Source: Patescibacteria group bacterium (lineage in GTDB: Bacteria > Patescibacteriota > Patescibacteriia > Patescibacteriales > UBA12465). From it: a stretch of 64,000 nucleotides of DNA. The position numbers and the translations under genes are program-made. The DNA is taken from NCBI GenBank assembly GCA_023229115.1, contig JALNZW010000004.1:40197-104196 (forward strand), given 5' to 3'. Position 1 is the first letter of the stretch, and each line of letters begins with the position of its first letter. The notes under the pieces are model-generated. The model saw only the letters and a program-made list of their open reading frames with translations. It made no database searches and was not told where the DNA came from. Positions 15,602-54,087 of this stretch are shown here, piece by piece.

Positions 15602-15611
15602 ATTTATAAAA

Positions 15612-16010: not shown

Positions 16011-16032
16011 AATAAGTATTTAAATTTTAATT

Positions 16033-16437
16033 TTAATTTGGAATATCGGGGCCAGCACTTACAAAAATATTCAAAACTAGCCAGCTTAAACCGTAAGAAA
16101 GTAAAACCACCACCAAACCAACAGCCGCATTTTTAATTATTTTTTTAGCTTTATCTACTTCTTGATCATTGCCGCCAGCCATCATCCATAAAAAACCGCC
16201 ATAAATAATCAAAATACCAAAAATAACACCCAAAAAACCAAGAATAGAGGAAATAACTATACCAACAACATCTTCAATCTGAGCACCGCCACTAGTATTA
16301 AAACCCATTTTGTTGGCTGAATTATTAAGATCAAAAGCATTTCCCAGGTTTTTAGCCGAAACAGGACCAAAAGTAAAAAAACTAATCAGAAAAACAAACA
16401 AAAGAAATAATATTTTATTTTTAAAAAAAGTAAACAT
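16033..16437 (-). CDS. VirB2/TrbC-like pilin paralog P3
   Basis: Signal peptide, then GGFLWMMAGGNDQEVDKAKKIIKNAAVG and a second helix. Confidence 0.75.
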   Translation of the reverse strand: MFTFFKNKILFLLFVFLISFFTFGPVSAKNLGNAFDLNNSANKMGFNTSGGAQIEDVVGIVISSILGFLGVIFGILIIYGGFLWMMAGGNDQEVDKAKKIIKNAAVGLVVVLLSYGLSWLVLNIFVSAGPDIPN

Positions 16438-16440
16438 ATT

Positions 16441-16833
16441 TTACTGAAAATTAAAAGCGCTAATAACTAATACACTTATAGAATAAGCACTAACCACTAT
16501 AAACAAACCTATAATCGACTGTACTATTATAGATTTAGCTTTTTCAACTTGTTGATCATTACCTCGAGCTGTCATCCATAACACACCTCCATAAACAAGC
16601 AAGACAACAAAAATAACACCAATAAAAGAAATTATAGTTTGAATAACTGATCCAATTGAAGATTCTAAATCGGCACTACTTTTAAAGATTTTAGAACTAG
16701 TATGTCCAGTCTTTTCACCAGCTGAGCTTAAACCAGTTTGCTCCGAAAAATTAAAAGCATTAACAAAAAAAGGACTAAAGAAAAAAAACAAACAAAAAAC
16801 AATTATAAACATTTTTATTTTTTTCTTTTTCAT
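16441..16833 (-). CDS. VirB2/TrbC-like pilin paralog P4
   Basis: GGVLWMTARGNDQQVEKAKSIIVQSIIG. The start at M13 (16833) avoids overlap with P5; the track start is 16869. Confidence 0.7.
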   Translation of the reverse strand: MKKKKIKMFIIVFCLFFFFSPFFVNAFNFSEQTGLSSAGEKTGHTSSKIFKSSADLESSIGSVIQTIISFIGVIFVVLLVYGGVLWMTARGNDQQVEKAKSIIVQSIIGLFIVVSAYSISVLVISAFNFQ

Positions 16834-16844
16834 AAAATTAAAAA

Positions 16845-17627
16845 TTATTCTCCATATAAAGTAAGACAATCAATCCCACTGCCGCCCTGAAGTTTATCAA
16901 TTTTTGATTCATGTTCGCACAACACACGACCACAATTTCTACCCCCCATCTTTCCTAAAAAACAAAGACATAGGTCTTGTGAAAATTGTATAAAATATTG
17001 AGAAGGTTCGCTAGTATTATCTCCCCAGTCCATATTGCCATCATCCCCAAAACCACTCCAACCATCTTCATAATCATCAAAATACTCTTCTGAGGTGTTA
17101 TTATTTACATAAACATACTCACCATCGTTAATACACATTTCAAGATATTCTTGCTCCCAGTCAGCAAGATCTAACTCTTCTTCACTATTTATTTGTTCTA
17201 CCGTTGTTCCAGTGGTTCCACCAATTGTATCTTCCTCAGTAAAAACACTTTTAGTAGACTGTTCTCCTATAAACTGAACAAGAGCAAAAGAAGCAAAAAT
17301 ACAAATAATGCCAATAACCGCCCAAATCATTGTTTTTTTTGATTTATCAATTTGTTGATCATTGCCAGAGGCAGTCATCCACATAATACCAGAATAAACC
17401 ATTAGTCCTAAAAAAATCAAACCAACAAAAGAAAGAAGAAATCCAACTGTTCCACCTAAACGATCAATTAGTCCGCCACTAGATTCATTAAAAACCGATG
17501 GTAAATTTCCTCGACCGACCGTTCTTGTTAATCCATAGCTACTTTCTCTAGCCATGCTTAAAATTGGAACAAAAAGAAAAACAAATAATAATATTAGAAA
17601 AACAAATTTATTTTTAGTAAATTTCAT
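16845..17627 (-). CDS. VirB2/TrbC-like pilin paralog P5 with ~130-aa acidic, Cys-containing C-terminal extension
   Basis: Pilin core SGIMWMTASGNDQQIDKSKKTMIWAVIG followed by a D/E/W/G-rich domain with 7 Cys. ATG at 17627 (MKFTKNKFVFL...) preferred over the track start at 17684. Confidence 0.7.
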   Translation of the reverse strand: MKFTKNKFVFLILLFVFLFVPILSMARESSYGLTRTVGRGNLPSVFNESSGGLIDRLGGTVGFLLSFVGLIFLGLMVYSGIMWMTASGNDQQIDKSKKTMIWAVIGIICIFASFALVQFIGEQSTKSVFTEEDTIGGTTGTTVEQINSEEELDLADWEQEYLEMCINDGEYVYVNNNTSEEYFDDYEDGWSGFGDDGNMDWGDNTSEPSQYFIQFSQDLCLCFLGKMGGRNCGRVLCEHESKIDKLQGGSGIDCLTLYGE

Positions 17628-17640
17628 AAACTTATAATTA

Positions 17641-18054
17641 TTAACCAGCCACAATAGGGCTATTTCCAGTAAACATATTTCCAATAAAATTAGTTATGAT
17701 ATAAGCGGATAAAACAATAATAAGGCCAATTATAGCCTGAATTATTAAATTTTTTGCCCGATCAACTTGTTGTTCGTTGCCTCTGGCTATCATCCACAAT
17801 ATCCCAGCATAAATAATCAAAATCATAAAAACAACAGCAATAAAAGAAAGAATTGCTCCGATTATAACACCAACCCTACTTGAAAGATAAAAACCAGAAT
17901 CACGAGTATTAACTTCTTCTACATTAAAAGCATCTTTAGATGTGTCAGTGACAACACTATTTAAACCCCAATCACCCTTGCCACCATCAGCTAAGGAAAA
18001 ATTAGCCAATAAAAACGAAGTAAAAATCAAGGAAATTATTAATATTTTTTTCAT
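17641..18054 (-). CDS. VirB2/TrbC-like pilin paralog P6
   Basis: Signal peptide, then AGILWMIARGNEQQVDRAKNLIIQAIIG and a second helix. Confidence 0.75.
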   Translation of the reverse strand: MKKILIISLIFTSFLLANFSLADGGKGDWGLNSVVTDTSKDAFNVEEVNTRDSGFYLSSRVGVIIGAILSFIAVVFMILIIYAGILWMIARGNEQQVDRAKNLIIQAIIGLIIVLSAYIITNFIGNMFTGNSPIVAG

Positions 18055-18079
18055 AAATAAATATCAAACAAGAAATTCA

Positions 18080-18170
18080 CCATGCTTCCTAAAACAATTG
18101 ATTATTTCAGGAAGCATGGCGCCTATTTACAATAGGGCGCCAATTTCTAAATTCGAGTTTAGAAACTAAA
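18080..18170 (-). terminator. Cluster of three hairpins between P7 and P6 (terminator / mRNA-stabilising or attenuating structure)
   Basis: Three stems: CCATGCTTCC/GGAAGCATGG (18080-18089 / 18110-18119), GGCGCCTATT/AATAGGGCGCC (18118-18141, one bulge) and TTTCTAAA/TTTAGAAA (about 18148-18170). This is unusually GC-rich for this genome. Confidence 0.55.
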
Positions 18171-18180
18171 ATAAAATATT

Positions 18181-18573
18181 CTAGTTGTTGGTTGCGTCCA
18201 TTAAAGTATTTAAAACGAAGGTTGTGATTCCCCAAGCAGCTAAGATGATTACTAAGCCGACAACTCCGGCTCCTAATAATTTTTTAGCTTCACCAATTTT
18301 ATCTTCGTTACCAGCAGCAGTCATCCATTTGAAACCTCCTAACAATACTATAACTACAGCTACGATACCAAGTAAAGTTAAAACTGTATTTATAATTTGA
18401 GCGGCCATTTCTCTTGGATCTTTTTGACCTAAAGCGATACCTTCATCACCATTTTTAACGTAGTTTAAACCAAAAACGTCATCTGATGCTTGAGCACCGT
18501 TAGTTAAAGCCAAAGAAATGATTGGGAAAACAAATAAAGAAACTAATAATAAACTAATAATTTTTTTTCTCAT
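18181..18573 (-). CDS. VirB2/TrbC-like pilin paralog P7 (candidate major subunit)
   Basis: GGFKWMTAAGNEDKIGEAKKLLGAGVVG. One of only two starts I inspected with an SD-like motif, and the stronger one (AGAAAGGTGGTGACTT-ATG). Higher GC than its neighbours and followed by its own hairpin cluster. Confidence 0.8.
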   Translation of the reverse strand: MRKKIISLLLVSLFVFPIISLALTNGAQASDDVFGLNYVKNGDEGIALGQKDPREMAAQIINTVLTLLGIVAVVIVLLGGFKWMTAAGNEDKIGEAKKLLGAGVVGLVIILAAWGITTFVLNTLMDATNN

Positions 18574-26835: not shown

Positions 26836-29800
26836 TTAAATATCATGAACATAATCGTCTAGCTTTATGCTCAGTAAATTACTAATACCATCGGAGCCCA
26901 TGCTTACTCCATACAAAATATTAGCTCTTTTCATGGTGGCCCTATTATGAGTAATAGCAATAAATTGAGTTTTATCCGACAAATCATCTAAAATCTGAGC
27001 CAATCTTTCAGAATTTGCTTCGTCTAAAGCTGCGTCTACTTCATCTAAAACAACAAAGGGGGCTGGATTAGCACTGATAATAGCACAAATTAAGGCGATA
27101 GCTGTTAAGGCTCTTTCTCCGCCAGACAACATATTCACTGAAGATATTTTTTTACCAGGAGGAACAGCTAAAATATCAACCCCCGATAAACCAATGGCAT
27201 TATATTTTTTTAAATATTTTATTTTCTTCAAATTTTTTGTTGATTGAGGTATAATACCTTCGCCACTCTTACTGATTTCGCCCTGCTCATTGTTTGTTTC
27301 ATCCATTTCTAGGGGCTCCTCTTTTATTGGGAATATTTTGGCTTGTCCGCCATTAAACAATATTTTAAAATATTCATTAAATTTTTCAGAAATAACTTTA
27401 AATTCACAATCAAAACGATCTTTAATCAAGGTGTCTAGTTCAACTATAACTCTTTCCAGGGATTTGATTGTTTTATTTAAATCTTCTGTTTGCTCAAATA
27501 AAAATTCATATCTTTTTTTTGTTTCAAAATATTCTTTTTCTACCTCTGGATCAATACCACCAATTTGTTCTAACTGATTTTTAATCTTATAAATTTCATT
27601 TTTTAAATACTCATAATTAATTTCCACATCCACTTCTTTTTTATAAGAATCAATAATTGATTTTTCAATTTTATCATTTAAAATATTATTTTCTAAGTCC
27701 TCCATGCGCGTTTCTTCTCTAGCCATCTCTACTTGTTTATTGTTTATTTTTTGATAAAAAGAGTGCATCTTTGATTCTAGTTCATGAACCTCTTTCTGCA
27801 AATTAAATAAATACTGTCTTTTTTCTTCCTGATTCTTATTAAAATTAGATAATTTTTCCTCCAAAGAACCCAAAATTTCTTTGGTTTTACTAATTTCTAG
27901 ATCTAAATAATTCCTTTCTTTAATAATAGCCTCTGTAAAAATAATATTTTTAAAATCAGAAAGAAAAGCATTGTCCCTAATTTCTTCTTCTAAATTTTCT
28001 ATTTTAGCTTGATTTTTAGAATCACTTGATTTAATAAAATTAATTTTATTTTCAAGATCAAGTAATTCATCTTTAAACTTTCTATACTCCGACTCTAGAC
28101 TTCTTCTCTTTTCTTGCCAATTTTCTTTTTCTATTTTTATTTTTTCTAAATCTAATTTAAAAGAAGATACTTCTCCTACTATTTTCTCTAAATTTAAGCT
28201 AGCCTTATCCTTTTCTTTCTTCAAGTCATCCAAGCTCTGTTCTTTGCTATTAGACTCTATTTTTCTATTGATTTCCAAGAACTCTCTTTCTAATTTATTT
28301 TTTTCGTTCTCTAATTGTTGTTTTTTATTTCTTAAAATTTGAAGTTCCAATTTAAAATTATTACGATCTTCATTTATTTTTTCCCTTTCTTTTTTAAGAT
28401 CAAGTATTTTTTTATTTACTCTCTCAATAGTGTTATCAAATTTTTGACCAGAAACAAAATTTAACAATTCACTTAAATCGTTTTTAATTTCTTGTATAAT
28501 TTTTTGGAAAAGAGATAAGTCGGAAGAATTTTCAAAATTACTAATTTTTTTAATCAAACTATTAATATCAGCATTTATTTTGTTAACATTACTAGGGTCA
28601 AATTCTTCTTTTATTTTTTTCAATTCACTCTCTAGTTTTTCTATTTTTTCTAAAAGCTCTTTTTCTTGCTCTGTTTTTGTAGAAAGTTTATCTTCTTTAT
28701 TTTTTTCTTCAGGATTTAATAAGCTAATTTCTTCTGATAATTGAGAAATGGTTTTTTGAATATCGTTTTGACGAGAAAATAAAAATGATATATCAAAATT
28801 GCCCGATTTTTCAAGCCTTAACTCCAACAAAGCCTCTAATTTCATCAGTTCTTTTTGCAATTCGCTTTGTTTTACCTCGGACTCTGTCAATTTTTTCTCT
28901 AAATCACTTATTTCTTCCTGTTTTAAAAACTCGGCTGATAAAGAATCTAATTTTTCTTTTATCTTTTCAGACTCTAATAATTTTTCCCCTTTCTCCTTGA
29001 TTAAATACTCAACTTCATTATTGTTTGTATTTTGAAACTTTAACTCTTCCCAAGAGTTAATAAGACTTTTTTGTTTTTCTAGTTTATTAAATTTGTCTCT
29101 ATTAGAGGATAAATTTTCTTGTAATTTTAAAAATTCATCGTTAAGGGATGATTCTTGGTTTATTTTATCCACTTCTTCTTTCTTGTTTTTTAAAATTATC
29201 TTTACTTTATCTTTATTTTCCTCATCTTCTTTGATTTCTTTATTTAAAGAATGAAGTTTTTCATTTATCTCTTGCCACAAAGAACCGTAATAATTTGTTT
29301 GATGCTCTCTCAATTCTTTTTCTAAATTTTCTCTTTTCTTTAATTTACTAACTTGCCTAGTCAAACTATTTAAACGAGGTTCAATCTCATTAAGAAGCAT
29401 TTCAACTTGGGATAAATTTTCTTGGCTCGTTTCTAGCTTTCCTAAAGACAAGTCTCTTTTAATTTGATATTGTTTAACACCAGTAGCCTCGTCAAAAAAA
29501 GCTTTTCTTTCGGCTGGACTGGTATTTAAAAAATTTTCTACCATTCCTTGTCCAATAACACTATATGTTTTTTGACCGAAACTAGCCTTGGCCAAAAAAA
29601 TTTGAACATCGCTCAAACGAACTTTATTATTATTAATAAGATATTCACTATTACCGTCACGATAAACCCTTCTAGTAATTACAATTTCTGGCAACATTAA
29701 AAAAGAATCAACAACATCTATTTCTGTTTTGTTATCTTTTTTTGATTCTTCTAAAGACTCCCTAGATTCGTCACTAATAGCGAACTCTTTAAATTTAAAG

Positions 29801-30090
29801 TTAGGATCTTGGTTATTTAAAAATAAGGAAACTTCAGCAAAATTAAGCCTAGCCTTTTTATCTGAACCAACAAAAATAACATCATCACTTTTTTTACTAC
29901 GAAGTAATTTAGAGCTCTGTTCACCTAAAACCCAACGAATAGCGTCAGCAATATTAGACTTGCCAGAACCATTAGGTCCGACCACAGAGGTTATACCTCT
30001 CTTTTGACCATCAACCATACCAGAAAAAACCAATTTATTTTTATTGGCAAAAGACTTGAATCCTTGTACTTCTAATTTTTCTAAATACAT
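26836..30090 (-). CDS. smc: Chromosome segregation protein SMC
   Basis: N-terminal MYLEKLEVQGFKSF...GPNGSGKSN, long coiled coils, C-terminal LSGGERALTAIAL...VLDEVDAALD. ATG at 30090 preferred over 30117. Confidence 0.92.
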   Translation of the reverse strand: MYLEKLEVQGFKSFANKNKLVFSGMVDGQKRGITSVVGPNGSGKSNIADAIRWVLGEQSSKLLRSKKSDDVIFVGSDKKARLNFAEVSLFLNNQDPNFKFKEFAISDESRESLEESKKDNKTEIDVVDSFLMLPEIVITRRVYRDGNSEYLINNNKVRLSDVQIFLAKASFGQKTYSVIGQGMVENFLNTSPAERKAFFDEATGVKQYQIKRDLSLGKLETSQENLSQVEMLLNEIEPRLNSLTRQVSKLKKRENLEKELREHQTNYYGSLWQEINEKLHSLNKEIKEDEENKDKVKIILKNKKEEVDKINQESSLNDEFLKLQENLSSNRDKFNKLEKQKSLINSWEELKFQNTNNNEVEYLIKEKGEKLLESEKIKEKLDSLSAEFLKQEEISDLEKKLTESEVKQSELQKELMKLEALLELRLEKSGNFDISFLFSRQNDIQKTISQLSEEISLLNPEEKNKEDKLSTKTEQEKELLEKIEKLESELKKIKEEFDPSNVNKINADINSLIKKISNFENSSDLSLFQKIIQEIKNDLSELLNFVSGQKFDNTIERVNKKILDLKKEREKINEDRNNFKLELQILRNKKQQLENEKNKLEREFLEINRKIESNSKEQSLDDLKKEKDKASLNLEKIVGEVSSFKLDLEKIKIEKENWQEKRRSLESEYRKFKDELLDLENKINFIKSSDSKNQAKIENLEEEIRDNAFLSDFKNIIFTEAIIKERNYLDLEISKTKEILGSLEEKLSNFNKNQEEKRQYLFNLQKEVHELESKMHSFYQKINNKQVEMAREETRMEDLENNILNDKIEKSIIDSYKKEVDVEINYEYLKNEIYKIKNQLEQIGGIDPEVEKEYFETKKRYEFLFEQTEDLNKTIKSLERVIVELDTLIKDRFDCEFKVISEKFNEYFKILFNGGQAKIFPIKEEPLEMDETNNEQGEISKSGEGIIPQSTKNLKKIKYLKKYNAIGLSGVDILAVPPGKKISSVNMLSGGERALTAIALICAIISANPAPFVVLDEVDAALDEANSERLAQILDDLSDKTQFIAITHNRATMKRANILYGVSMGSDGISNLLSIKLDDYVHDI

Positions 30091-30220
30091 AAAAATATCA
30101 ACAACATTGTCCATCAAAAAAACAACTAATTTATTATAGACATTTTAATAAACAAAATCAAATATTTTTTAAAAAAACAAAAGCGCTCATTTGAGAAGCG
30201 CCTTCGTTTTTTGAAAAAAA

Positions 30221-30472
30221 CTATTTCTTTTTTGAAACCTTTTTTGCAACTTTCTTTTTAGCTACTGGTTTCTTTGCAACTTTCTTAACAATCTTTTTTG
30301 CAACTTTCTTTTTAGCTACTGGTTTCTTTGCAACTTTCTTTTTAGCTACTGGTTTCTTTGCAACTTTCTTAACAATCTTTTTTACAACTTTCTTTTTAGC
30401 TACTGGTTTCTTTGCAACTTTCTTTTTAGCTACTGGTTTCTTTGCAACTTTCTTTTTAGCTACCTTTTTCAT
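30221..30472 (-). CDS. Histone H1-like Lys/Ala/Val/Pro repeat protein (putative nucleoid-associated)
   Basis: The 83-aa protein consists almost entirely of KKVAKKPVAK repeats. Has its own weak hairpin downstream and lies next to smc. Confidence 0.65.
   Translation of the reverse strand: MKKVAKKKVAKKPVAKKKVAKKPVAKKKVVKKIVKKVAKKPVAKKKVAKKPVAKKKVAKKIVKKVAKKPVAKKKVAKKVSKKK
30246..30443. repeat. Coding tandem repeat, 30-bp unit nested in 84-bp higher-order unit
   Basis: The unit GCAACTTTCTTTTTAGCTACTGGTTTCTTT is repeated and interleaved with the 24-bp variant GCAACTTTCTTAACAATCTTTTTT. The 30276-30359 block recurs almost exactly at 30360-30443 (one G/A difference at 30299 vs 30383). Confidence 0.85.
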
Positions 30473-30582
30473 AATTTTAAAAAATTATTTATTGCTTAAA
30501 ATAGGAACCGACCAATTCCTATATAATTTAAATTAAATCTAAGATAATTATAACATAAAAAAAATAAAACAACAACAAAAAA

Positions 30583-31083
30583 TCAAGGTTTATTGAAGTA
30601 AAAATTATCACCAACCGAAATTTTATTTTGATCACAAAAGCCCCCCTTAAGCTCCAAAACTTTATCAACCGGGACTGGCGATTTATAAAAAATATTTTGA
30701 TTAAATTCTTCAAAAGACAAATCTTTATAAATTTCCACAATTTCATTTTCATCAATAAAAACAATATCAAGATTAAATTTCATATCTCTCATGACAAAAG
30801 TTCTTATCTCTTTATCAAAAAACAAAAAAAGCATTCCAAAATCGTCGGGAATGTTTTCTCTGTGACTCAAACCTAAATATTTTTTTTCAGGAGAAATAGT
30901 TAATTCAACATTAATTTCTTTATCTTTTATTTTCGAAACAACAATATCTCCATTATTAAAATTAGTTTTATCCACAGACCTAATTTTTAAAATTAAAAAA
31001 AAGAAAAAAAGAAAAAAAGCAAAGAATAAAAATAAAAAACAAAAAAATACGAATCTTTTATTTTTTATATTTTTTTTAGACAT
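30583..31083 (-). CDS. DUF192-family protein (secreted/membrane-anchored)
   Basis: N-terminal TM followed by GLSHRENIPDDFGMLFLF...MRDMKFNLDIVFIDENEIVEI, the DUF192 (COG1430) pattern. Confidence 0.65.
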   Translation of the reverse strand: MSKKNIKNKRFVFFCFLFLFFAFFLFFFFLILKIRSVDKTNFNNGDIVVSKIKDKEINVELTISPEKKYLGLSHRENIPDDFGMLFLFFDKEIRTFVMRDMKFNLDIVFIDENEIVEIYKDLSFEEFNQNIFYKSPVPVDKVLELKGGFCDQNKISVGDNFYFNKP

Positions 31084-33793
31084 TTTTTTGTCTCCTTTTA
31101 ATAAATTTAAAAATTTCCATTATTAACAAAACGGAAGAGGCTATTAAAAGTAAATAAAACCATTCTTTTAGTCTTATTCTTTGGGTTTGAAGAGTTTTGC
31201 TCAAAAAGGGATTATAAATAGCAAAAATGTGCAATAGCTGAGCAGCAACTATTGCAAAAAGAATAAGCATGTTTTTCTTAAAAGAAATTTTAAAAATAGA
31301 AACAAGCTCTGAACGACAATTCAAAAGATGAATGTTTTGAAATAAAACCATCAACATTAAAAGGAAATTTCTAGCGTGTACCTCTTCCCAGTTTAAAACA
31401 TTAAGAAGATAATACCAAACAACAAAAACAACGAGACCAATAAACAAACCTGAAATTAAGGTTTGTTGTGTCATTAGTTTATCAAAAATATTTTCTTGTG
31501 GTGATCTTGGTGGTCTCTTCATAACACCGTCCTCACCAGCTTCAAACGCCAAGAATATATCTTGTATTCCATTAGTAACTAAATTTAACCATAAAAGTTG
31601 AGCAGCAAAAAAAGGAAGTGGTAAATTAAAGATAACTGCTAACAAAAAAATAAATATTTCAGCCGCTCCACTAGAAAGAACAAAATAAACAACCTTTCTA
31701 ATATTGTCATAGACAAAACGACCCTCTTCTACTCCTCCAACAATTGAAGCAAAATTATCATCAACAACTATCATGGTAGAAGTCTCTTTGGCTACATCAG
31801 TCCCAGAGCCCATAGCCACTCCAATGTTAGCTTGTTTAAGGGCCGGAGCATCATTTACCCCATCACCAGTAACGGCCACAAAATGACCCATTTTGACCAA
31901 AGCCTTCACTATCTTTAATTTTTGTAAAGGAGAAACTCCGGCAAAGACAGTCGTTCTATTAATTAAATCGACAAACTTGGGTGTAGTTTCTAAATCAGCT
32001 GAACCAAGCTTATCTCCGGTTATAACTTGATCACTAGAGCGAGCAATCCCCAGCTCTTTAGAAATAAACAAGGCAGTGGCCGGATGATCTCCAGTAACCA
32101 TTATAACTTTTATGCCCGCCTCCTTACATTTTTGGACAGCTTGTTTTGAATCTTTTCTTAAAGGATCTATAAAACAAACTAAAGAAAGGAAGTTAATATT
32201 TTTTATTTTTTTATCTTCAAATTTTTTAAAATCAAAATCACTTATATCTATTTTGCCATAAGCAACTGCTAACACTCTATAACCTAGAGAGGCTAAAGCC
32301 TCTCCTTCTTTTTTAATATTGGATTTATCTAAAGACATTGGAGATTCCAAGAACCCAGCCTGAGAACAAAAATCAAGAACACGATTTACGGAGCCCTTAA
32401 CAGCCACTCGAACTTCTTCTGTTTTTTTGTCTTTATAAATTTTGGCTGAAAATCTTTTTTCTGATTCATAAGGAATTCCTAACAAATGTTCAACTGAATT
32501 ATTTATTTCATCCAAAGATAATCCTGCTTTATAAGCCATGGCCAAAAAAGCAACATCCATAGAATCACCATGATGATGCCAAACCTTCTTTGATCTCCAC
32601 AATTTAGCTTCATTACTTAAAACAGAATTTTTTATTATCTCAAAAACAATATTTTTATCTTCCTGATTAAAGCCATCTTCATAATCTAAAGATCCAATTC
32701 CATTATATCCCTGCCCCGAGATATTTACTTTCTTAGAATTGGGAAGATAAATTAATTTGGCTGTTTGTTGATTAACAGTTAATGTCCCAGTTTTGTCGCT
32801 AGCAATCATAGTACAAGAGCCTAAACCCTCTACGGCTGTAAGTTGTCTAACAACAACATTTCTCTTCGACATTCTGGTTGTTGCTACAGATAGGGCCACA
32901 GTTAAGGCCACTGGCAAACCCTCTGGAATAGCTGAAACAGCCAAGGCCACAACTAAGAAAAAAACCTCCATCGGTTCTACTCCCTTCCAAATAGAGATGA
33001 TAGCCAAAACAAGACAAAGAAATAAAATAATAAAAGAAACCCTTTTAGTAAAGCTTTCCATTCTAATAATAAGAGGTGGTTTTGTTTTTTGAGAAGATGA
33101 AATAATATCAGCGATTTTACCAACTTCAGTATTTAAACCAGTTTCAATTACAATGCCCCAGGCACGACCAGAGATAACTGAAGCGCCAGCATAAGCAATA
33201 TTACTTCTCTTATTAAGAGGTGTATCTTTTTTTAATTTTTCCAAGCTCTTACTAACCGCCTCTGATTCTCCAGTTAAAAAAGATTCATCGATTGATAAAT
33301 TTTTGCAATCAAACAATCTTAAATCCGCCGGAACCTTAGATCCAGACTCTAAAAAAACAATATCACCAACCACCAGCTCTTCTGCATTAATATCTTTTTC
33401 AATCCCATGTCTTTTAACTCTAGCCTTTATCTTTAAAAGATTTTGTAAAGCAGCTGCATTTTTCTCAGCCTTATTTTCCTGCCAAGTACCGATGATAGCG
33501 TTAAAAACTATAACTCCAAAAATAAAAGAAGCATCTGTAAATTCTTTTAAAAACAAAGAGATAAGCCCAGCAAAAATCAAAACATAAATTAGAGGGCTTA
33601 AAAACTGGCTAAAAAAAATAATAAAAATATTGGGGACCTTACGACTGGGAAGTTTATTTAAGCCAAACTCTTTTTGCCTTGTAAAAACTTCATGAGAATC
33701 AAGGCCATCTTTGTTTGATTTTAATTGCTCAAAAATAGCTTTAATTTCTAAAGAGTGCCAATCCATTTTTTTATCGTTTGTTTTATTTTCCAT
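31076..33793 (-). CDS. Cation-transporting P-type ATPase (type II, Ca2+/Mg2+-like)
   Basis: Motifs TGES, DKTGTLT, MVTGDHPATA and GDGVNDAPALK, with 10 TM segments. ATG at 33793 (MENKTNDKK...) preferred over 33886. 8-nt overlap with the DUF192 gene. Confidence 0.9.
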   Translation of the reverse strand: MENKTNDKKMDWHSLEIKAIFEQLKSNKDGLDSHEVFTRQKEFGLNKLPSRKVPNIFIIFFSQFLSPLIYVLIFAGLISLFLKEFTDASFIFGVIVFNAIIGTWQENKAEKNAAALQNLLKIKARVKRHGIEKDINAEELVVGDIVFLESGSKVPADLRLFDCKNLSIDESFLTGESEAVSKSLEKLKKDTPLNKRSNIAYAGASVISGRAWGIVIETGLNTEVGKIADIISSSQKTKPPLIIRMESFTKRVSFIILFLCLVLAIISIWKGVEPMEVFFLVVALAVSAIPEGLPVALTVALSVATTRMSKRNVVVRQLTAVEGLGSCTMIASDKTGTLTVNQQTAKLIYLPNSKKVNISGQGYNGIGSLDYEDGFNQEDKNIVFEIIKNSVLSNEAKLWRSKKVWHHHGDSMDVAFLAMAYKAGLSLDEINNSVEHLLGIPYESEKRFSAKIYKDKKTEEVRVAVKGSVNRVLDFCSQAGFLESPMSLDKSNIKKEGEALASLGYRVLAVAYGKIDISDFDFKKFEDKKIKNINFLSLVCFIDPLRKDSKQAVQKCKEAGIKVIMVTGDHPATALFISKELGIARSSDQVITGDKLGSADLETTPKFVDLINRTTVFAGVSPLQKLKIVKALVKMGHFVAVTGDGVNDAPALKQANIGVAMGSGTDVAKETSTMIVVDDNFASIVGGVEEGRFVYDNIRKVVYFVLSSGAAEIFIFLLAVIFNLPLPFFAAQLLWLNLVTNGIQDIFLAFEAGEDGVMKRPPRSPQENIFDKLMTQQTLISGLFIGLVVFVVWYYLLNVLNWEEVHARNFLLMLMVLFQNIHLLNCRSELVSIFKISFKKNMLILFAIVAAQLLHIFAIYNPFLSKTLQTQRIRLKEWFYLLLIASSVLLIMEIFKFIKRRQKNV

Positions 33794-33812
33794 AAATTCT
33801 TTATTTAAAAAA

Positions 33813-35504
33813 TTAACTTTCACTAACAAAATAATTTTCTTGAATATATTGTTGAAGCATTCTTTCTGTATTAAAATAAGAAGCATTTATGGCAATTGTA
33901 TTTTGCATAGTTTCTTGCCATTTTTTAGGCACACCATAATAACGTGGCAATATTTTATTTTCCAAATTATAATACAAGCTTTCAGCATCTTTTTTGTTCA
34001 ATTCTAAAGAATTAAAACTTTTTCTTTTTTCTCCAATAGCCCAACCAGTTTTATCCTTAATATAGCCCTCAAGCCACCAACCATCCAAAGTACTAAAATG
34101 TGGAATGCCATTATGAGCAGCTTTCATACCGCTAGTTCCTGAAGCTTCATTAGGAGGAAGGGGAGTATTAAGCCAAATATCAACTCCAGAAGTCATTAAC
34201 TTTCCTAATTTCATTTCATAGCTCTCTAAAAAAACAATTTTTATTTCATCTTTATATTGCTCCTTCATTTTTAATATATCTTTAATTAATTTTTTTCCAT
34301 CTACATCGTTTGGATGAGCTTTGCCGGCATATATTATTTGAATTTGTCCAATATTATGATGAATATTTAAAAGCTTTTTAATATCATGAAAAAGAAGATT
34401 AGATCTCTTGTAACCAGTGAAACGACGAGCAAAGCCAATAGTAAAAACATTTAGATCTAATTTTATTTTTTGCTTTTTATAAATATAATCTATTAAATCT
34501 TTTTTTGATCTCTGATGGGCTTGCCAGATAACAGACAAAGGAATGTTAAAAACATTTCTCAAAGATAAATTTGAGTTTCTCCAATTAGGAATATATTTAT
34601 CATATATTTTTTGAAAATGAGGAGAAGTCCAAGTTTCTGAATGAATCCCGTTGGTTATAGCGTGAATTGGATATTCGGGAAACATTTTATTAGAAACTTT
34701 TTGATGACTTAAAGCCACTCCGTTTATAAAATTACTAAAAAATAAACCAATCTTTGTCATGTTGACTATCTTTTTATCAACCAACCCTTTTAATTTATAA
34801 GGAAAATCTTTTTGATACTCCAGAAAAAATTTTAAAGGAAAAACATCATGACCAGCATCAACTGGGGTGTGTGTTGTAAAAACACATTTTCGTCTAACAT
34901 CTCTAATTTTATCTTCATTTTTTCTTTTTTTAGAATTGAGAAATAATTCAACCGCAGCTAGACTTCCATGACCCTCATTTATATGAAATTTTTTTAAATA
35001 CTTATGACCTAAAGAATTTAAAATTTTAACTCCAGCTCGACCTAAAACAATTTCTTGCATCAAACGATAGTCTTTGCCAGAGCCATAAAGTTGTCCAGTT
35101 AAACTAGCATATTTAGGTAAGTTGCCAGCAATGTTTGTATCTAATAAATAAACAGGCACTGGATATTCACCACGTCCAGTAATTAAATATTGCCAAACAC
35201 CAACTAGAACATCATCTTTGCCAATTTTAATTTTAACTTTATTCGGTAATTTCTTTAATTTAGATAAATTATAATTTGATTTTAATTCTTCTTGACCATT
35301 TTTCCCTATTTTTTGTTTAAAATAACCCAGGTCGTTTAAAAGAGTCACTCCCAACATCGGCAAATCAAGATCAGCCGCCGACCTTAAAGTATCTCCGGCT
35401 AAAACACCCAAGCCACCAGCATAGGTTTTAATATCATTTTCCAAAGCTATTTCCATACTGAAATAAGCTATTTTGTATTTTCCATTCTTTTTTTCTTGAT
35501 TCAT
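33813..35504 (-). CDS. Alpha-glucan (glycogen/maltodextrin) phosphorylase family protein
   Basis: N-terminal AYFSMEIALENDIKTYAGGLGVLAGDTLRSAADL plus EASGTSGMKAAHNG (PLP-Lys region). Confidence 0.88.
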   Translation of the reverse strand: MNQEKKNGKYKIAYFSMEIALENDIKTYAGGLGVLAGDTLRSAADLDLPMLGVTLLNDLGYFKQKIGKNGQEELKSNYNLSKLKKLPNKVKIKIGKDDVLVGVWQYLITGRGEYPVPVYLLDTNIAGNLPKYASLTGQLYGSGKDYRLMQEIVLGRAGVKILNSLGHKYLKKFHINEGHGSLAAVELFLNSKKRKNEDKIRDVRRKCVFTTHTPVDAGHDVFPLKFFLEYQKDFPYKLKGLVDKKIVNMTKIGLFFSNFINGVALSHQKVSNKMFPEYPIHAITNGIHSETWTSPHFQKIYDKYIPNWRNSNLSLRNVFNIPLSVIWQAHQRSKKDLIDYIYKKQKIKLDLNVFTIGFARRFTGYKRSNLLFHDIKKLLNIHHNIGQIQIIYAGKAHPNDVDGKKLIKDILKMKEQYKDEIKIVFLESYEMKLGKLMTSGVDIWLNTPLPPNEASGTSGMKAAHNGIPHFSTLDGWWLEGYIKDKTGWAIGEKRKSFNSLELNKKDAESLYYNLENKILPRYYGVPKKWQETMQNTIAINASYFNTERMLQQYIQENYFVSES

Positions 35505-42169: not shown

Positions 42170-42243
42170 GGAGCGGTAGTTCAGTTGGTTAGAATGCCTG
42201 CCTGTCACGCAGGAGGTCGCGGGTTCGAGTCCCGTCCGCTCCG
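42170..42243 (+). tRNA. tRNA-Asp (anticodon GTC)
   Basis: Acceptor GGAGCGG/CCGCTCC, anticodon stem CCTGC/GCAGG with loop CTGTCAC, T-arm GCGGGTTCGAGTCCCGT, discriminator G. Confidence 0.92.
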
Positions 42244-42245
42244 CA

Positions 42246-42442
42246 GAGAATGAACGAAGTGAATAAACGAAGGAGTGGCATCAAACCAATTTATTGGTTT
42301 GATGAGGGCTCGAATGCCGGAGCGATGTGCGGAGCTAAGGCGACGCACCGCGAGGCGGGGTCGAGAGTTCTTTGTGAGCGCAACCACGTAAAACGTGGTA
42401 AGCGAACTTAGAAACTCGTGACCGAGTCCCGTCCGCTCCGCA
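42246..42442 (+). other. GC-rich 197-bp element A bounded by a 20-bp direct repeat of the tRNA-Asp 3' end (candidate structured RNA / miniature integrative-element remnant)
   Basis: CGAGTCCCGTCCGCTCCGCA occurs at 42226-42245 (inside the tRNA) and again at 42423-42442. The interior has a 12-bp hairpin CATCAAACCAAT/ATTGGTTTGATG and stems GTGCG/CGCAC and ACCACG/CGTGGT. It is homologous to 52726-52908. Confidence 0.6.
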
Positions 42443-42506
42443 AGTAAGTGGATAAAAAAATAACAAAAATATTTTACGTGACAAGTTATTTCCACTCCGC
42501 ATTTTG

Positions 42507-49841: not shown

Positions 49842-50579
49842 TTAATTAATAACCTTAACCTCTGGAATGTCATCACCATTTTCTTTCTTTTTAAAAACAA
49901 TTTTTTGTTGTAAAGCTGTAAATAAAGTAGTTAAAAACCAATAAAGAGTTAGTCCGGCCGGCATAGTCATTCCGATAAAAACAGTAACCGCTGGCATTAC
50001 ATATAACATTTGCTTATTCATTATGGCCGTCATGCTTTCATCTTTAGAGCCTTTTACATCTATAGCTGGTTTTTTAGTAGTCATCATCTTGGCTTGCCAA
50101 AATTGGGCCAAACCAGCCAAAACAGCTAAAACAATGCTTTTTTCGGACAAATTAAAAAACCCTAGAGAAATTGCATTTATAGTTTCCGGGTTTTTTATGA
50201 ATGGATATAAAAGATCTAAATGATTTTGAGCAAAACCATCTCTAAAAACTCTAAAAATGGCTATAAAAAAGGGCAATTGAATTAAAAGAGGAAAACAGGA
50301 AGAAAAAGGATTAACTTTATTCTCTTTATAAAGAGCCATTAATTCTAAGCTTAAAGCTTGTTGATCTCCTTTGTGCTTCTTTTTTAGCTCATCTATTTTA
50401 GGTTGTAAGTCTTGTAATGCTTTTTGAGATTTTATGGATTTTTTAGATAAAGGAAATAATATTAATTTAACAATTAGTGTTAAAAAAATAATAGCGATAC
50501 CAAGGTCACCAAAAATATTATACAAGAAAACCAAAAGATTTAATATTGGTTGATAAAAAAAAGTTTGAAAAATTTCCAT
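49842..50579 (-). CDS. yidC: Membrane protein insertase YidC (short form)
   Basis: YidC/Oxa1 core blocks (LFPLSKKSIKSQKALQDLQPKIDELKKKHKGDQQ, NPFSSCFPLLIQLPFFIA, GLTLYWFLTTLFTALQQ). Sits in the rnpA-yidD-yidC context. Confidence 0.9.
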   Translation of the reverse strand: MEIFQTFFYQPILNLLVFLYNIFGDLGIAIIFLTLIVKLILFPLSKKSIKSQKALQDLQPKIDELKKKHKGDQQALSLELMALYKENKVNPFSSCFPLLIQLPFFIAIFRVFRDGFAQNHLDLLYPFIKNPETINAISLGFFNLSEKSIVLAVLAGLAQFWQAKMMTTKKPAIDVKGSKDESMTAIMNKQMLYVMPAVTVFIGMTMPAGLTLYWFLTTLFTALQQKIVFKKKENGDDIPEVKVIN

Positions 50580-50599
50580 ATTTTTAATTATTTTATAAT

Positions 50600-50869
50600 T
50601 TATTTAACAGGATCATGTCCTCCCTTATTAAATGGATTACATCTAATAATTCTCCAACAAGTCATTAATCCACCTTTTATAAATCCATACTTAGAAAGAG
50701 CATCAACCCCATATTGAGAGCAGGTTGGCGTAAATCGACAAAAACCATGAGGATAAAAAGATTTTAGTGGACCATGATCAAAGGAAAGCGTTTTTTGATA
50801 AATCTTTATCAAAAAAATAGCAATCCTTCTTGGCAAAAAATATATATTCCTAAAAAAACTAATTATCAT
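50600..50869 (-). CDS. yidD: Membrane protein insertion efficiency factor YidD
   Basis: [48 protein letters not shown] at 50869 preferred over the TTG at 50878. Confidence 0.9.
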
Positions 50870-51203
50870 AAACGCCAATCTTTTTAAAAGAATCTTCCAC
50901 CTCTTGGCTTAAACCAGAAAATTCTAAATTTATAATATTTTTAGTAACTATTATTATTATATCAAACCCCTTTTTTATTTGCTTTAAATCTCTATTTACA
51001 ATAGCCCTAATTCTTCTTTTTATTTTATTTCTTTCTACCGCTTTTTTGCTAATTTTAGCGGAAATTATCACGCAAAAACGACTCTCATTTAGGTCGTTTT
51101 TAAGAACTTTAAAGCCTAGGACATTACTATAAAAACTCTTGCCATTTTTAAAGGTTTTTTCTATTTCCTTGGTTTTTCTCAATCTATTGTTTTGATTAAA
51201 CAT
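50859..51203 (-). CDS. rnpA: Ribonuclease P protein component
   Basis: 114-aa basic protein ([16 protein letters not shown]...[12 protein letters not shown]) directly downstream of rpmH. Confidence 0.85.
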
Positions 51204-51227
51204 CTTGTTTATGTTTAATCTTAAAAT

Positions 51228-51365
51228 TTATTTGGTCAATTTTTTTCTCCCTTTTTGTTTTCTTCTTTTAATAATATCCTGACCATCCTTAGTTTTCATT
51301 CTCTTTAAAAATCCATGTTTTCTTTTAGCTCTTTTAGCATTTGGTTGATATGTTCTCTTTGGCAT
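51228..51365 (-). CDS. rpmH: 50S ribosomal protein L34 (not in supplied ORF track)
   Basis: Manual translation gives [45 protein letters not shown], 45 aa. This is the canonical L34 sequence pattern in the canonical position upstream of rnpA. Confidence 0.9.
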
Positions 51366-51532
51366 ACTTTTATATAAAATTATATTTTATTTTGTAAATA
51401 TCAAAACGAGACGATGTTTTCGTCTTAATTTTAATTATATGGTAAAGTTATTTTTTTGTCAATTAGTTTATTTTCTTGTTATTTTTTTATAAATAATATA
51501 AAATATTCATAATATAAAATAATTATAAACAA

Positions 51533-52114
51533 ATGATTATATCAATTAGCGGATTTCATGGATCGGGCAAGAGCACTATAGCCGAAATGTTGGCCAAAAA
51601 ATTAAATTGGCCGAGATATTATATGGGAGGACTAAGAAGAGAGGCGGCACTAAAAAGAGGAATGACCTTGGCTGAATATAACAAATTGGGAGAAACAGAT
51701 CCTTCAACAGACCTAGAGGTGGACAATTATCAAAAAGAGCTTGGGCAAATAAAAGATAATTTTATAATTGAGGGAAGAACCTCTTGGCACTTTATACCTC
51801 ACTCTTTAAAAATATATATTAACGTTGATCATAAAATAGGAGCTGAAAGAATTTTTAAAAGTTTACAGAAAAAAAATAATCGAAACGAAGACAACAATTT
51901 AAACACACTAGAAGATGTTATAAAAAGCGTTGAAGAAAGATATAAAAGTGATAAATTAAGATATAAAAAATATTTTAATATAGATGTTTATGATTTAAAA
52001 AATTACGATTTTGTTATTAATACTGACAAAATAAGCATTGATCAAGTTTTTGAAAATGTTTATTCTTTTATCAAGAAGGAGTTAGAAAAAGAGGCATTGA
52101 CAAAAAATAAATAA
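51533..52114 (+). CDS. Cytidylate kinase-like P-loop NMP kinase
   Basis: P-loop ISGFHGSGKSTIAEMLAKKL. About 190 aa, resembling archaeal-type/putative cytidylate kinases. Confidence 0.65.
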   Translation: MIISISGFHGSGKSTIAEMLAKKLNWPRYYMGGLRREAALKRGMTLAEYNKLGETDPSTDLEVDNYQKELGQIKDNFIIEGRTSWHFIPHSLKIYINVDHKIGAERIFKSLQKKNNRNEDNNLNTLEDVIKSVEERYKSDKLRYKKYFNIDVYDLKNYDFVINTDKISIDQVFENVYSFIKKELEKEALTKNK

Positions 52115-52192
52115 ACACATATTATATAGACAAGGAAAATTTTTTCCTTATTTTTTAGTGAATACTTATTTTGAGTTTATAAAAATAAATAT

Positions 52193-52537
52193 ATGCAAGA
52201 TTTAAAAGAAGTTATTAAGGAGTTAAAACCTGGAATGACTATCAGGGTTTATCAAAAAATCAAAGAATTAAACACCAAAGGAGAGGAAAAAGAAAGAGTT
52301 CAATATTTTGAAGGTATTATTATTGCCAAAAAACACGGAAGTGAAGCTGGTGGAACAATTACTGTTAGAAAGGTTTCTGATGGAATTGGAGTTGAAAAAA
52401 TATTTCCATTAAACTTACCAACCATAACCAAAATAGAAATTAAAAAAGAAGCAACTGTTAGAAGGGCAAAGCTTTCTTTCTTAAAGAAAAAGGGTTATAA
52501 AAGAAAATTAAAAGAAAGGGTTGTTAAAAAATCATAG
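52193..52537 (+). CDS. rplS: 50S ribosomal protein L19
   Basis: LKPGMTIRVYQKIKE...RVQYFEGIIIAKKHGSEAGGTITVRKVSDGIGVEKIFPLNLPTITKIEI. Confidence 0.92.
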   Translation: MQDLKEVIKELKPGMTIRVYQKIKELNTKGEEKERVQYFEGIIIAKKHGSEAGGTITVRKVSDGIGVEKIFPLNLPTITKIEIKKEATVRRAKLSFLKKKGYKRKLKERVVKKS

Positions 52538-52552
52538 TTAGTATCCCTTGGC

Positions 52553-52637
52553 GGGCGAGTGGTGAAATTGGTAGACACGCAAGCTTGAGGGGTTTGTGGC
52601 CATTGTGGCCGTGGAAGTTCAAATCTTCTCTCGCCCA
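52553..52637 (+). tRNA. tRNA-Leu (anticodon GAG)
   Basis: Acceptor GGGCGAG/CTCGCCC, anticodon stem CAAGC/GTTTG (one G-U pair) with loop TTGAGGG, long variable arm TGGCCATTGTGGCCG, T-loop TTCAAAT, discriminator A. Confidence 0.85.
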
Positions 52638-52650
52638 CAAAACACATTTA

Positions 52651-52724
52651 GGGCGCATAGCTCAGTTGGCTAGAGCACTTCGTTTACACCGAAGGGGTCC
52701 AGGGTTCGAGTCCTTGTGCGCCCA
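52651..52724 (+). tRNA. tRNA-Val (anticodon TAC)
   Basis: Acceptor GGGCGCA/TGCGCCC, anticodon stem CTTCG/CGAAG with loop TTTACAC, T-arm CAGGGTTCGAGTCCTTG. Confidence 0.9.
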
Positions 52725-52725
52725 C

Positions 52726-52908
52726 TACACAAAAATCATCCAAATTTATTTGGATGATTTTTGTTTTATGTTTATTTGTACAAGGACTCGAAAGCCGGAG
52801 GCAATGCACCCTTGTACACCGCCGATCGGGCCGGAGAGCTTAGCGAGCGCAAACTACAAAGAAGTTAGGCGAAGCTTAGTTACCGTAACCGAGTCTTTAT
52901 ACACCAAC
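52726..52908 (+). other. GC-rich element B, homolog of element A, ending in an AT-decayed copy of the tRNA-Val 3' end
   Basis: Hairpin ATCATCCAAAT/ATTTGGATGAT at about 52735-52760. Core blocks GGACTCGAAAGCCGGAGG, CACCGCC...GGAGAG, GAGCGCAA and ACCGAGTC are shared with element A. CGAGTCTTTATACACCAAC (52890-52908) matches the tRNA's CGAGTCCTTGTGCGCCCAC (52707-52725) at 14 of 19 positions, and all mismatches are GC to AT. Confidence 0.55.
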
Positions 52909-52938
52909 ATAAAAAAGACGGAAAATTTCCATCTTTTT
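52906..52938. terminator. Imperfect bidirectional terminator hairpin
   Basis: AAAAAAGACGGAAAATTTCCATCTTTTTT, with stem GGAAA/TTTCC extended by AGA/TCT, flanked by A and T runs. Lies downstream of the minus-strand pilin-FISUMP gene. Confidence 0.5.
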
Positions 52939-52953
52939 TATGTGTATGTTTAT

Positions 52954-54087
52954 TTAATCTTTTAAACAGCGAATCGAAAGAGCAAAACCATCAAGATGAA
53001 AATATCTACTAAGATTAGAATAAGTAGCCATAAAACTACGGAACCAAGAATCATCAACACCGTTTTTAGAAGATGACCAAATAATTGAAGTCGTCCCAAT
53101 ATTAAAAAAACTACCATTAGTATTAAAATAACCGGCTGGCAAAACATTAAATTCACTAACGCCAAAATTTATATGACTTTTTAAAGGTCCATCGTTCCAC
53201 AAGTCATAATTACCCACTAATTTAGAAGCAACATCCTCCCCTCTCAAGTTTGTATTATCCCAGATAGGATCGTTTAAACCATAAAAAGAGTCTGTGTTCC
53301 CTTCAATAATTTTCCATTCTTCATCTGTCGGCACATGCCAACCATCAGGACATAGCCCTTGGCTTCCTTCAGTTATAGATCCATTCATTGCAGCACTCCA
53401 CTGATAAAGCAAACCATATATATCACAATTACTAAAATCATTATTATAACAATCACACCAGCCTTCATCTGAATCATTTACCCAAGTAACAGAAGAACAA
53501 CCATTGTCATAATTTAGATTCTCAGCCATCCAAATTTGATCTCCTATTTTTACCCAATCATATTCTTGACTATCCCTTGCATCTATAAAAGTGCCTGATA
53601 TGCCAGAGAATGGATCTTGTGGTTCTTCTTCTCCGCCTGATTCACTGCTACCAAATATTATTCCTCCCGGAGTCATTTGTTTAGCTCCTTCTGGTAGGTC
53701 GGATACTTGTTTACCAGTACAGAAATCAATAGTGTAAGTAGCTCCATTATTTTGAGGTATGTAGGTATAAGTATTAGAAGCTTCTAGACAATCTCCATCA
53801 GCGGGGGTAGGGGCAGTTGGAATAGAGTACATAAATGTTTCTTGAGAAGTAGAAGAAACTATAGAGCCACTATTCCATTCTTCTTGAGTGGGATATCTTC
53901 CATACTTATTAGCAAATAATTCCAGAGCTGTATGTATTTGTTTCATGTCAGCCATTCTTTTGGCATCTCTAGCATTTTGTCGTGCTTGCTGTAGAGCGAC
54001 AACAGCTAAAGTAGCCAGTATACCAATAATAGCGATTACCACTAAGAGCTCAATTAATGTAAAGGCTCTTTTCTTAGTGACTAACAT
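52954..54087 (-). CDS. Type IV pilin-like protein (prepilin N-terminal methylation motif) fused to a FISUMP (Fibrobacter succinogenes major paralogous) domain
   Basis: N-terminus [27 protein letters not shown] (class III signal with E+5). C-terminal half [22 protein letters not shown]...[10 protein letters not shown]...[17 protein letters not shown] matches the FISUMP/TIGR02145 pattern. Confidence 0.8.

Follow-up and report, generated by a model that had tools for sequence, protein, structure and literature searches.

The stretch of DNA analysed here (the window: 64 kb of contig JALNZW010000004.1 from a Patescibacteria group bacterium (candidate phyla radiation), an affiliation with which its DnaA relatives agree, with a GC content of about 28%) contains two copies, A and B, of a short, GC-rich, non-coding element that lie behind a tRNA-Asp and a tRNA-Val gene, respectively. 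A preliminary description of the window had placed both copies in one element family, an observation that is real and statistically solid, and the concept of a family is not only right but far broader than the window alone shows, with at least 76 non-redundant units. The core of these units is a selected base-paired structure, the evidence for which comes from the family as a whole and not from B. As to their nature, we give an even chance to the reading that A and B are representatives of a non-autonomous mobile element of ~190 bp, site-specific at tRNA 3' ends, in which the fold is the cis-acting part.

The likeness of the two copies was assessed in several ways. The blocks that had been listed for 52726-52908 are all found, namely the hairpin, GGACTCGAAAGCCGGAGG, CACCGCC, GAGAG, GAGCGCAA (52845-52852) and CGAAGCTTAGTTACCGTAACCGAGTC, and their order is the same as in element A. 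Local alignment of A with B exceeds the shuffled controls with a z of 10.2 for the whole elements and of 4.6 for the GC-rich cores (1000 dinucleotide shuffles each). Furthermore, both copies are picked out by an independent covariance model, R2, which was built from metagenomic members only and includes neither window sequence nor any ortholog of B. In the window, R2 matches A at 42301-42434 (73.8 bits, E 2.5e-17) and B at 52779-52901 (59.7 bits, E 1.2e-13), and there is no further match at E <= 1.

Beyond the window, a pattern scan of metagenomes for three shared core blocks returned at least 118 stretches, and R2 confirms 81 matches in the 85 loci that were fetched (metagenomic loci, together with the neighbourhoods of DnaA relatives; loci are numbered with the prefix L). 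The same model gives zero matches in the GC-rich loci that had matched the pattern by chance, and zero in the empty sites of L019 and L020. The cores have a GC content of 57-68% within loci of ~30% GC. The core remained unmatched in Rfam 15 at gathering and at permissive thresholds (E <= 10), both in the window, where the tRNAs alone reach the gathering threshold, and in intact members, and BLAST of an intact unit against plasmid and phage collections returned no match. A search of the literature found no account of such an element, and the family is apparently both undescribed and widespread. Pattern scans of other material yielded chance matches at most: a strict two-block pattern run over genome contigs gave 16 matches, all of them chance matches in GC-rich coding DNA, and scans of viral contigs gave 20 chance matches in one case and zero in the other.

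The position of the units with respect to tRNA genes is highly regular. A same-strand tRNA gene is found at most 120 nt upstream in 38 of the 76 non-redundant units, and these units are always co-oriented with the tRNA and lie 3' of the gene; 8 of the 76 are too near a contig end for adjacency to be judged. The 38 tRNA-adjacent units use 22 anticodons, and every copy bears the 3' end of its own host tRNA, so that what had been proposed from A and B, namely that the family uses many different tRNAs and carries the end of each, holds across the wider family. In 27 of the 38 units the repeat starts exactly 19 nt before the end of the tRNA, at C56 of the T-loop and directly after GGTT. Perfect direct repeats of 19-20 nt are seen in most tRNA-adjacent units, as well as in A, L017 and L021, and one end is formed by an intact tRNA. 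In the window, the host of B is a tRNA-Val(TAC) gene (52651-52725, + strand; predicted by ARAGORN and Rfam, and identical in sequence to the tRNA of the relative L017), whose final 19 nt, from C56, form the proximal repeat CGAGTCCTTGTGCGCCCAC (52707-52725, +). The host of A is a tRNA-Asp(GTC) gene (42170-42244, +), and its proximal repeat is CGAGTCCCGTCCGCTCCGCA (42226-42245, +).

Most members carry a long hairpin with flanking A- and T-runs between the tRNA and the closing helix of the core, P1, and this leader hairpin looks like an intrinsic terminator. Nearly identical leader hairpins are found at unrelated loci, for example L046, L097 and L109, which indicates that the hairpin is part of the element and that the element starts right behind the tRNA. 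The units are ~190 bp long and contain no open reading frame (ORF).

Comparison of related genomes reveals filled and empty sites. The neighbourhoods of DnaA relatives that were fetched comprise L017 and L018 (92% identical), L019 (83%), and L020 and L021 (77-78%). B is present in L017 and L018, where its 19-nt repeat is perfect, whereas in L019 the element is missing and tRNA-Val is followed directly by a terminator. In L020 and L021 only 5 nt separate tRNA-Asp from tRNA-Gly, and the site of A is therefore empty in both. A third member is found behind tRNA-Ala(GGC) in L021 and is absent from L020. In addition, tandem or mixed arrays occur in L054, L120, L102 and L095, and beyond A the 3' end of tRNA-Asp recurs a third time as a decayed fragment (TCCACTCCGCA, 42491-42501, +; 10/11 match) that abuts TTTTG and tRNA-Gly; it is probably either the displaced original end of tRNA-Asp or the end of an older unit. 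Presence and absence, fixed boundaries, arrays and the third tRNA-Asp fragment read together as the classical signature of site-specific integration at tRNA 3' ends. The proximity of B to dnaA, which had been pointed out earlier, appears incidental, since the order rplS-tRNA-Leu-tRNA-Val-dnaA is kept in relatives with or without the element.

The fold of the family was derived with RNAalifold from 32 members aligned by MAFFT (alignment A4), and the consensus is a three-way junction composed of the closing helix P1 and the hairpins P2 and P3. The junction that follows P1 is purine-rich (GAAAGCC), P2 contains a conserved GGAG/CGAG internal loop and AUGUGC..GCAC, and P3 (GGUCG../..CGUGACC, GCGCUUAG/CUUAGCGAC) forms a long hairpin whose tip varies. 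Cells of the alignment assigned to pairs are in fact paired in 88.9% of cases, versus 27-38% in controls with slid partners. The compensatory changes of the core, whose scoring the preliminary description had suggested, amount to changes on both sides in 24 of 43 pairs and are spread over contigs of 28-62% GC. On four of five measures the alignment was matched by none of 500 shuffles, and on the remaining one, further pair types, by 3 of 500. At one position a G.U pair is kept in 24 of the 32 sequences, and G.U outnumbers A.C in P2 and P3 by 42 to 19; the fold belongs to the tRNA-sense strand.

The closing helix deserves separate consideration. Its 3' strand is the copy of the tRNA 3' end and its 5' strand is a complementary segment borne by the element, and P1 therefore covaries with the identity of the tRNA; one of its pairs is AU in 17 sequences, UA in 7, GC in 4 and CG in 3. 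In L017, which contains the ortholog of B, P1 pairs over 14 bp without a mismatch (TGCACAAGGACTCG / CGAGTCCTTGTGCG). In a subclass with an inserted hairpin, to which A belongs, the P1 5' segment ahead of the small hairpin repeats the 5' acceptor strand of the tRNA. By a position-specific test, at least 6 of 7 bases of this mimic are paired in 13 of 37 hairpin-type units versus 11% in controls, whereas an unpositioned search of the leaders for acceptor-complementary 7-mers gives 43% in the real set and 43% in the control. Thus P1 appears to imitate the coaxial T-stem/acceptor helix of the adjacent tRNA, a domain of ~100 nt taking the place of the T-loop. Furthermore, cores that are 92-100% identical may carry different P1 helices and tRNA copies, which suggests that retargeting or module exchange is fairly frequent.

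All of these parts can be traced in A. The 5' side of its closing helix in the minimum free energy (MFE) fold (42272-42312, +) consists of the acceptor 5'-strand mimic GGAGTGG (42272-42278, +), which pairs at 7/7 positions with CCGCTCC of the tRNA copy, the small inserted hairpin (42279-42304, +; MFE fold) and AGGGCTCG (42305-42312, +), which mimics the 5' strand of the T-stem and is antisense to the T-loop. The core with the junction, P2 and P3 follows at 42313-42422 (+), within the covariance-model match and with a fold z of -6.6, and the distal copy of the 3' end of tRNA-Asp, 20 nt without a mismatch (42423-42442, +), also serves as the 3' strand of P1. The differences between A and its nearest relatives, L102 and L057, are compensated. 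A looks intact, given its perfect 20-nt repeat, the z of its fold and these compensated differences.

B presents a different picture. Its leader hairpin (52729-52764, +) has a 16-bp stem and a TTTA loop followed by a T-run and is terminator-like. The P1 5' strand TGTACAAGGACTCG (52777-52790, +) runs antisense to the first part of the tRNA-3' copy; with 52890-52903 it forms 13 of 14 pairs (14 of 14 in L017). As in many other members, P1 involves the T-stem and 3-4 acceptor bases only. The core (52791-52889, +), with the junction AAAGCC, P2 and P3, is degraded and shows many non-canonical pairs in the covariance-model alignment. The distal copy of the tRNA-Val 3' end, CGAGTCTTTATACACCAAC (52890-52908, +), which is also the 3' strand of P1, has decayed too; as had been noted, it matches the tRNA at 14 of 19 positions, and all five mismatches are GC to AT. 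An internal stem that had been reported at 52777-52785 / 52810-52818 is present, but the second tRNA-Val fragment that it was said to contain is not: its 3' arm belongs to the P2 hairpin of the family, and the P2 sequence (..CTTGTGCAC..) also occurs in members attached to tRNA-Ala.

The decay of B was measured against its ortholog in L017, where DnaA is 92% identical and the 19-nt repeat is perfect. The two tRNAs differ at 0 of 161 positions and the leader at 1 of 53, while the core has 17 changes in 100 positions, 12 of them GC to AT, together with a 2-nt deletion, and the 19-nt copy has 5 changes in 19, all GC to AT. The preliminary description had held that the repeat of B drifted beside an undecayed, stable core; this was wrong, as the drift of the core about equals that of the repeat and blocks conserved in the family have been lost (ATGTGC to ATGCAC, CGAGGC to CGA--TC). 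The hairpin at the tip is broken (CTGCGAAGCAG to CTACAAAGAAG), and the bit score is ~60 for B versus 123 for L017. A C to T change in the P1 5' strand offsets a G-to-A change in the copy, a single event that is not significant. B is thus best described as an old relic that is eroding as a whole under GC-to-AT pressure, and the selection on the core that had been proposed stands for the family, by pairing and covariation, but not by the argument drawn from the core of B. Spurious ORFs at 42205-42495 (-; 96 aa) and 52585-52965 (+; 126 aa) cross A, B and the tRNAs, and these are almost certainly artefacts of the GC-rich cores.

If the units are mobile, their anatomy suggests how they may move. 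Recombination would take place within the 19 nt that extend from C56 of the T-loop, just past GGTT, to the base after the discriminator; the incoming element would bring a new tRNA 3' end together with the hairpin, and the other 19-nt copy would be left at the far side. The tRNA-matched helix and the conserved core would constitute the cis-acting working part, in that the fold would mimic the target site or the tRNA and be read by a recombinase or a tRNA-binding protein encoded elsewhere. As the units contain no ORF and no recurrent recombinase is among the families listed for their neighbours, the element is at best non-autonomous. The working folded molecule could be either an RNA transcript or a single-stranded DNA intermediate. 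In favour of RNA are the operon context of A, the conservation of a G.U pair, an internal loop of the G.A type, and the fact that unit and tRNA always point the same way. In favour of single-stranded DNA are the terminator-like leader of most members, the scarcity of GNRA and UNCG loops, the prevalence of C(GNA)G triloops, and the prospect that in a circle of single-stranded DNA the copy would pair with its antisense segment into a duplex equal to the target site, with the leader hairpin as a cap at one end and the core at the other.

Several points weigh against an element of this kind or limit the evidence for it. The blocks GAA.GCCGGAG, ATGTGC and CGAGGC belonged to the search pattern, and their invariance within the set is therefore partly ascertainment. 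About 30 of the 76 units are not beside a tRNA and are preceded by other tRNA-like ends or by cargo genes. The empty tRNA-Ala site of L020 (2700-2725, -) has ~22 nt (AAAATAAATTGCGYTAGCRAT) in common with the start of the leader in L021 (2685-2710, -), which fits either imprecise loss, with these nucleotides as a deletion remnant, or a native flank. In most members, the terminator-like hairpin between the tRNA and the core disfavours strong co-transcription. Of 64 terminal loops, 25 are C(GNA)G triloops, a type typical of very stable DNA mini-hairpins (C(GAA)G in 20 cases and C(GUA)G in 5; an example is the P2/P3 tip at 8444-8454 of L017), triloops of any kind account for 41, and GNRA or UNCG loops are nearly absent; a structured RNA would not usually show such dominance, which recalls stable DNA mini-hairpins. 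Finally, neither a recombinase nor an excised circle nor an autonomous relative was found, and the case for mobility is one of comparative anatomy alone.

The search for a recombinase covered both the neighbours of the units and the window. Pfam searches of 148 neighbouring ORFs, complemented by selected large ORFs, revealed no recurrent recombinase, reverse transcriptase (RT), TnpA/TnpB or Cas gene among the 25 most frequent families listed, and the genes that do occur are scattered and accessory or defence-like (AAA_21, 23S_rRNA_IVP, Bro-N, Fic, RhuM and a restriction enzyme). In the window, no recombinase was seen among 20 ORFs searched individually with Pfam, nor among the 25 most frequent NCBIfam families of 52 other ORFs, where a single integrase could be hidden. 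Two loci have a large serine recombinase directly beside units (L062, 127-1665, -; L060, 3122-4465, -). In L062, the 3' end of this gene overlaps the 3' part of the unit, including the distal tRNA copy, which suggests that other islands integrate beside or into the tRNA copies of the units.

The strongest alternative, which we regard as possible though distinctly less likely than a mobile element, is that each unit is a gene for a stable tRNA-like non-coding RNA that is co-transcribed with the tRNA and cut out by tRNA-processing enzymes, its mobility being secondary. The closing helix would then be seen as an acceptor/T-arm minihelix, cut by RNase P at the 5' side and by RNase Z at the 3' side, where CCA would be added, and the core would act at the RNA level, for instance by drawing off, as a decoy or sponge, proteins with affinity for tRNA ends. 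The apparent mimicry of the acceptor stem fits this idea, as do the constant co-orientation with the tRNA and the presence, beside the conserved G.U pair, of a tandem G.A-type internal loop (GGAG/CGAG). Scans for promoter and terminator patterns favour transcription in the case of A, which forms part of a predicted promoter-tRNA-Asp-A-tRNA-Gly-terminator unit and is not preceded by a terminator. The same scans disfavour transcription of B, and most members, B included, have a terminator-like hairpin and a T-run before the core, with no promoter detected. Moreover, among the members that allow the test, only roughly one in three pairs its acceptor strand in full, and the loops are, as described, mostly C(GNA)G triloops and almost never GNRA or UNCG.

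A bolder version of the mobile-element reading, to which we attach a rather low probability, is that the target is chosen by nucleic-acid pairing, such that the mimic, made up of the complementary segment and the core in a single-stranded RNA or DNA intermediate, would programme a trans-acting enzyme to recombine at C56 of the matched tRNA. With a different paired segment, the element would be directed to another tRNA.

We find it improbable that the units encode guide RNAs made up of a scaffold of ~110 nt and a 19-nt 3' guide equal to the tRNA 3' end, with the universally conserved GGTT of the T-loop as 5' protospacer- or target-adjacent motif (PAM or TAM) and a protein encoded elsewhere that would aim them at tRNA genes. 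The arrangement is suggestive, in that behind the scaffold comes a 19-nt match whose start invariably lies right after GGTT, and cores that are 92-100% identical are combined with different closing helices and tRNA copies. There is also a precedent for homing to tRNA genes in type V-K elements, which carry 17-nt tRNA-matching spacers with a GTN PAM and whose att sites differ even between close elements (PMC11406308; bioRxiv 10.1101/2021.02.06.429022). However, type V-K protospacers lie at varied positions of tRNA genes and not at one fixed position, the supposed guide is sequestered in helix P1, and the 19-nt copy is more simply an att duplication. In addition, no Cas12, TnpB or Tn7-like genes are among the 25 most frequent families of the 148 neighbour ORFs, and no effector (Cas12k, TnpB, IscB or Tns) was found in the 40 neighbour ORFs scanned individually, although single cases could hide among the 148.

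Least probable of all, and in our view scarcely tenable, is the notion that the units are inert scars, that is, functionless leftover ends of larger islands once integrated at tRNA genes. The visible decay of B would agree with this, as would the cargo or defence-like genes that adjoin some units and the large serine recombinases that adjoin two, but it is contradicted by the compensatory changes across contigs of 28-62% GC, and dozens of independent loci with common boundaries and a common fold, GC-rich cores in ~30% GC surroundings and a closing helix re-matched to each tRNA also speak against it. Known identities were likewise dismissed: a retron, by the lack of an adjacent RT, with none in 30 individually scanned window and neighbour ORFs or in the 25 most frequent neighbour families; a group I/II or tRNA intron, as the upstream tRNA is complete; a transfer-messenger RNA (tmRNA) or permuted tmRNA, by the lack of a match; and a T-box or other cis-regulatory leader, as a tRNA, or a terminator and then an opposite-strand gene, lies downstream.

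The surroundings of the units offer some further observations. The interval between B and dnaA contains a pilin-like gene in the window (N_methyl and Fib_succ_major; 52954-54087, -), a DUF4325 gene in the 92% relative (L017, 8563-9588) and nothing in the 77-83% relatives, and the spot beyond the distal tRNA copy of B thus seems to collect accessory genes. Upstream of the units in L058 (~200-330), L080 and L097 there is a second conserved non-coding segment of ~130 nt (TGTGTCACTTTTGTCAC...GGTTCCAGCCCGAGGTAGCCCGC), which ends like a tRNA 3' end and abuts the leader of the unit, while the genes upstream of it differ (a 929-aa ORF without Pfam match, a Macro-domain protein and a 150-aa ORF). Ends like those of this segment (...GTAGCCCGC) are also found in L057, L060 and L064, and the segment may be the end of another element family that uses the same tRNA ends. 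Units in L042 (~1060), L116 (~2390), L068, L049 and L095 (~4200) have no tRNA ahead of them but instead sequences like AGTTCGAATAGCGTCCCGTACTCTCCGC, which resemble a T-loop and tRNA 3' end with ~4 extra bases and sit after small cargo ORFs.

Elsewhere in the window, a run of small ORFs at 15146-18570 (-) includes matches to 'pilin-like conjugal transfer protein' (7 window proteins) and T4SS_pilin/TrbC; together with the very large ORFs beside it (26836-35501, -), it probably makes up a type IV secretion cluster or a conjugation-like one. The cumulative GC skew has its minimum at ~50000-54000, and rpmH-rnpA-yidD-yidC (-) diverge from cmk-rplS-tRNAs-dnaA-dnaN (+), which probably places the origin of replication close to 51200-51530 or in the vicinity of dnaA.

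If confirmed, the family would stand for a large class of mobile elements without genes, or of structured RNAs that move, in uncultivated bacteria and among them the Patescibacteria, whose genomes are tiny; it would also mean that tRNA genes can be exploited by copying both strands of the T-arm and acceptor helix. It also raises the question of how a protein-less element of 190 bp hits at least 22 tRNA genes, as counted by anticodon, at one exact nucleotide. In annotation, the 19-nt tRNA fragments and the GC-rich cores may be mistaken for pseudo-tRNAs or ORFs, and the units mark places where accessory genes build up.

The known systems closest to the family include tRNA-integrating islands and the derivatives of these that lack an integrase (cis-mobilizable elements, CIMEs), with arrays of the tycheposon type among them, which share with the present family a direct repeat equal to the tRNA 3' end from the T-loop, regeneration of the tRNA, presence or absence between close relatives and tandem build-up at one tRNA. 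Unlike these, the element described here measures ~190 bp, is gene-less with no integrase found in cis, and possesses a covarying, strand-specific fold and an extra segment complementary to the tRNA copy. Recombination sites that act as folded single strands, namely integron attC sites and the attP(+) of CTX phage, which is used by XerCD, resemble it in their conserved, strand-specific structure, in a stem that recreates a target-like duplex and in arrays of short units at one site, where units without an ORF occur. In contrast to them, the present element targets tRNA genes and has strongly conserved core blocks, its single-stranded DNA form is suggested by loop types only, and a link to IntI or Xer would be hypothetical.

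The att-targeting CRISPR RNAs of CRISPR-associated transposons (CASTs) of type V-K and the omega-RNAs of TnpB and IscB are likewise composed of a scaffold and a 17-20-nt match to a tRNA gene beside GTN or GGTT, with apparently dynamic retargeting among tRNAs, whereas in our units the match is base-paired within the unit and fixed in position from C56 to the 3' end, and no effector or transposase genes were seen among the families listed for the neighbouring ORFs. In tRNA-like structures, such as the tRNA-like domain of tmRNA, viral tRNA-like structures, mascRNA and YrlA, a non-tRNA molecule imitates the acceptor/T-arm helix, as P1 appears to do, but the putative mimic described here copies the sequence of the neighbouring tRNA, exchanges the T-loop for a domain of ~100 nt and matches none of these families in Rfam. 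Finally, RF02223 (sX4), a proteobacterial small RNA that overlaps a tRNA 3' end, gives a weak partial match in L115 (1043-1130, -; 25.7 bits against a gathering score of 70). This match rests on the tRNA part and the leader alone and not on the core, and the element is not a member of sX4; in the sX4 model, the 3' strand of the tRNA pairs with a complementary segment downstream, and antisense segments that trail tRNA genes may thus also exist in Proteobacteria.

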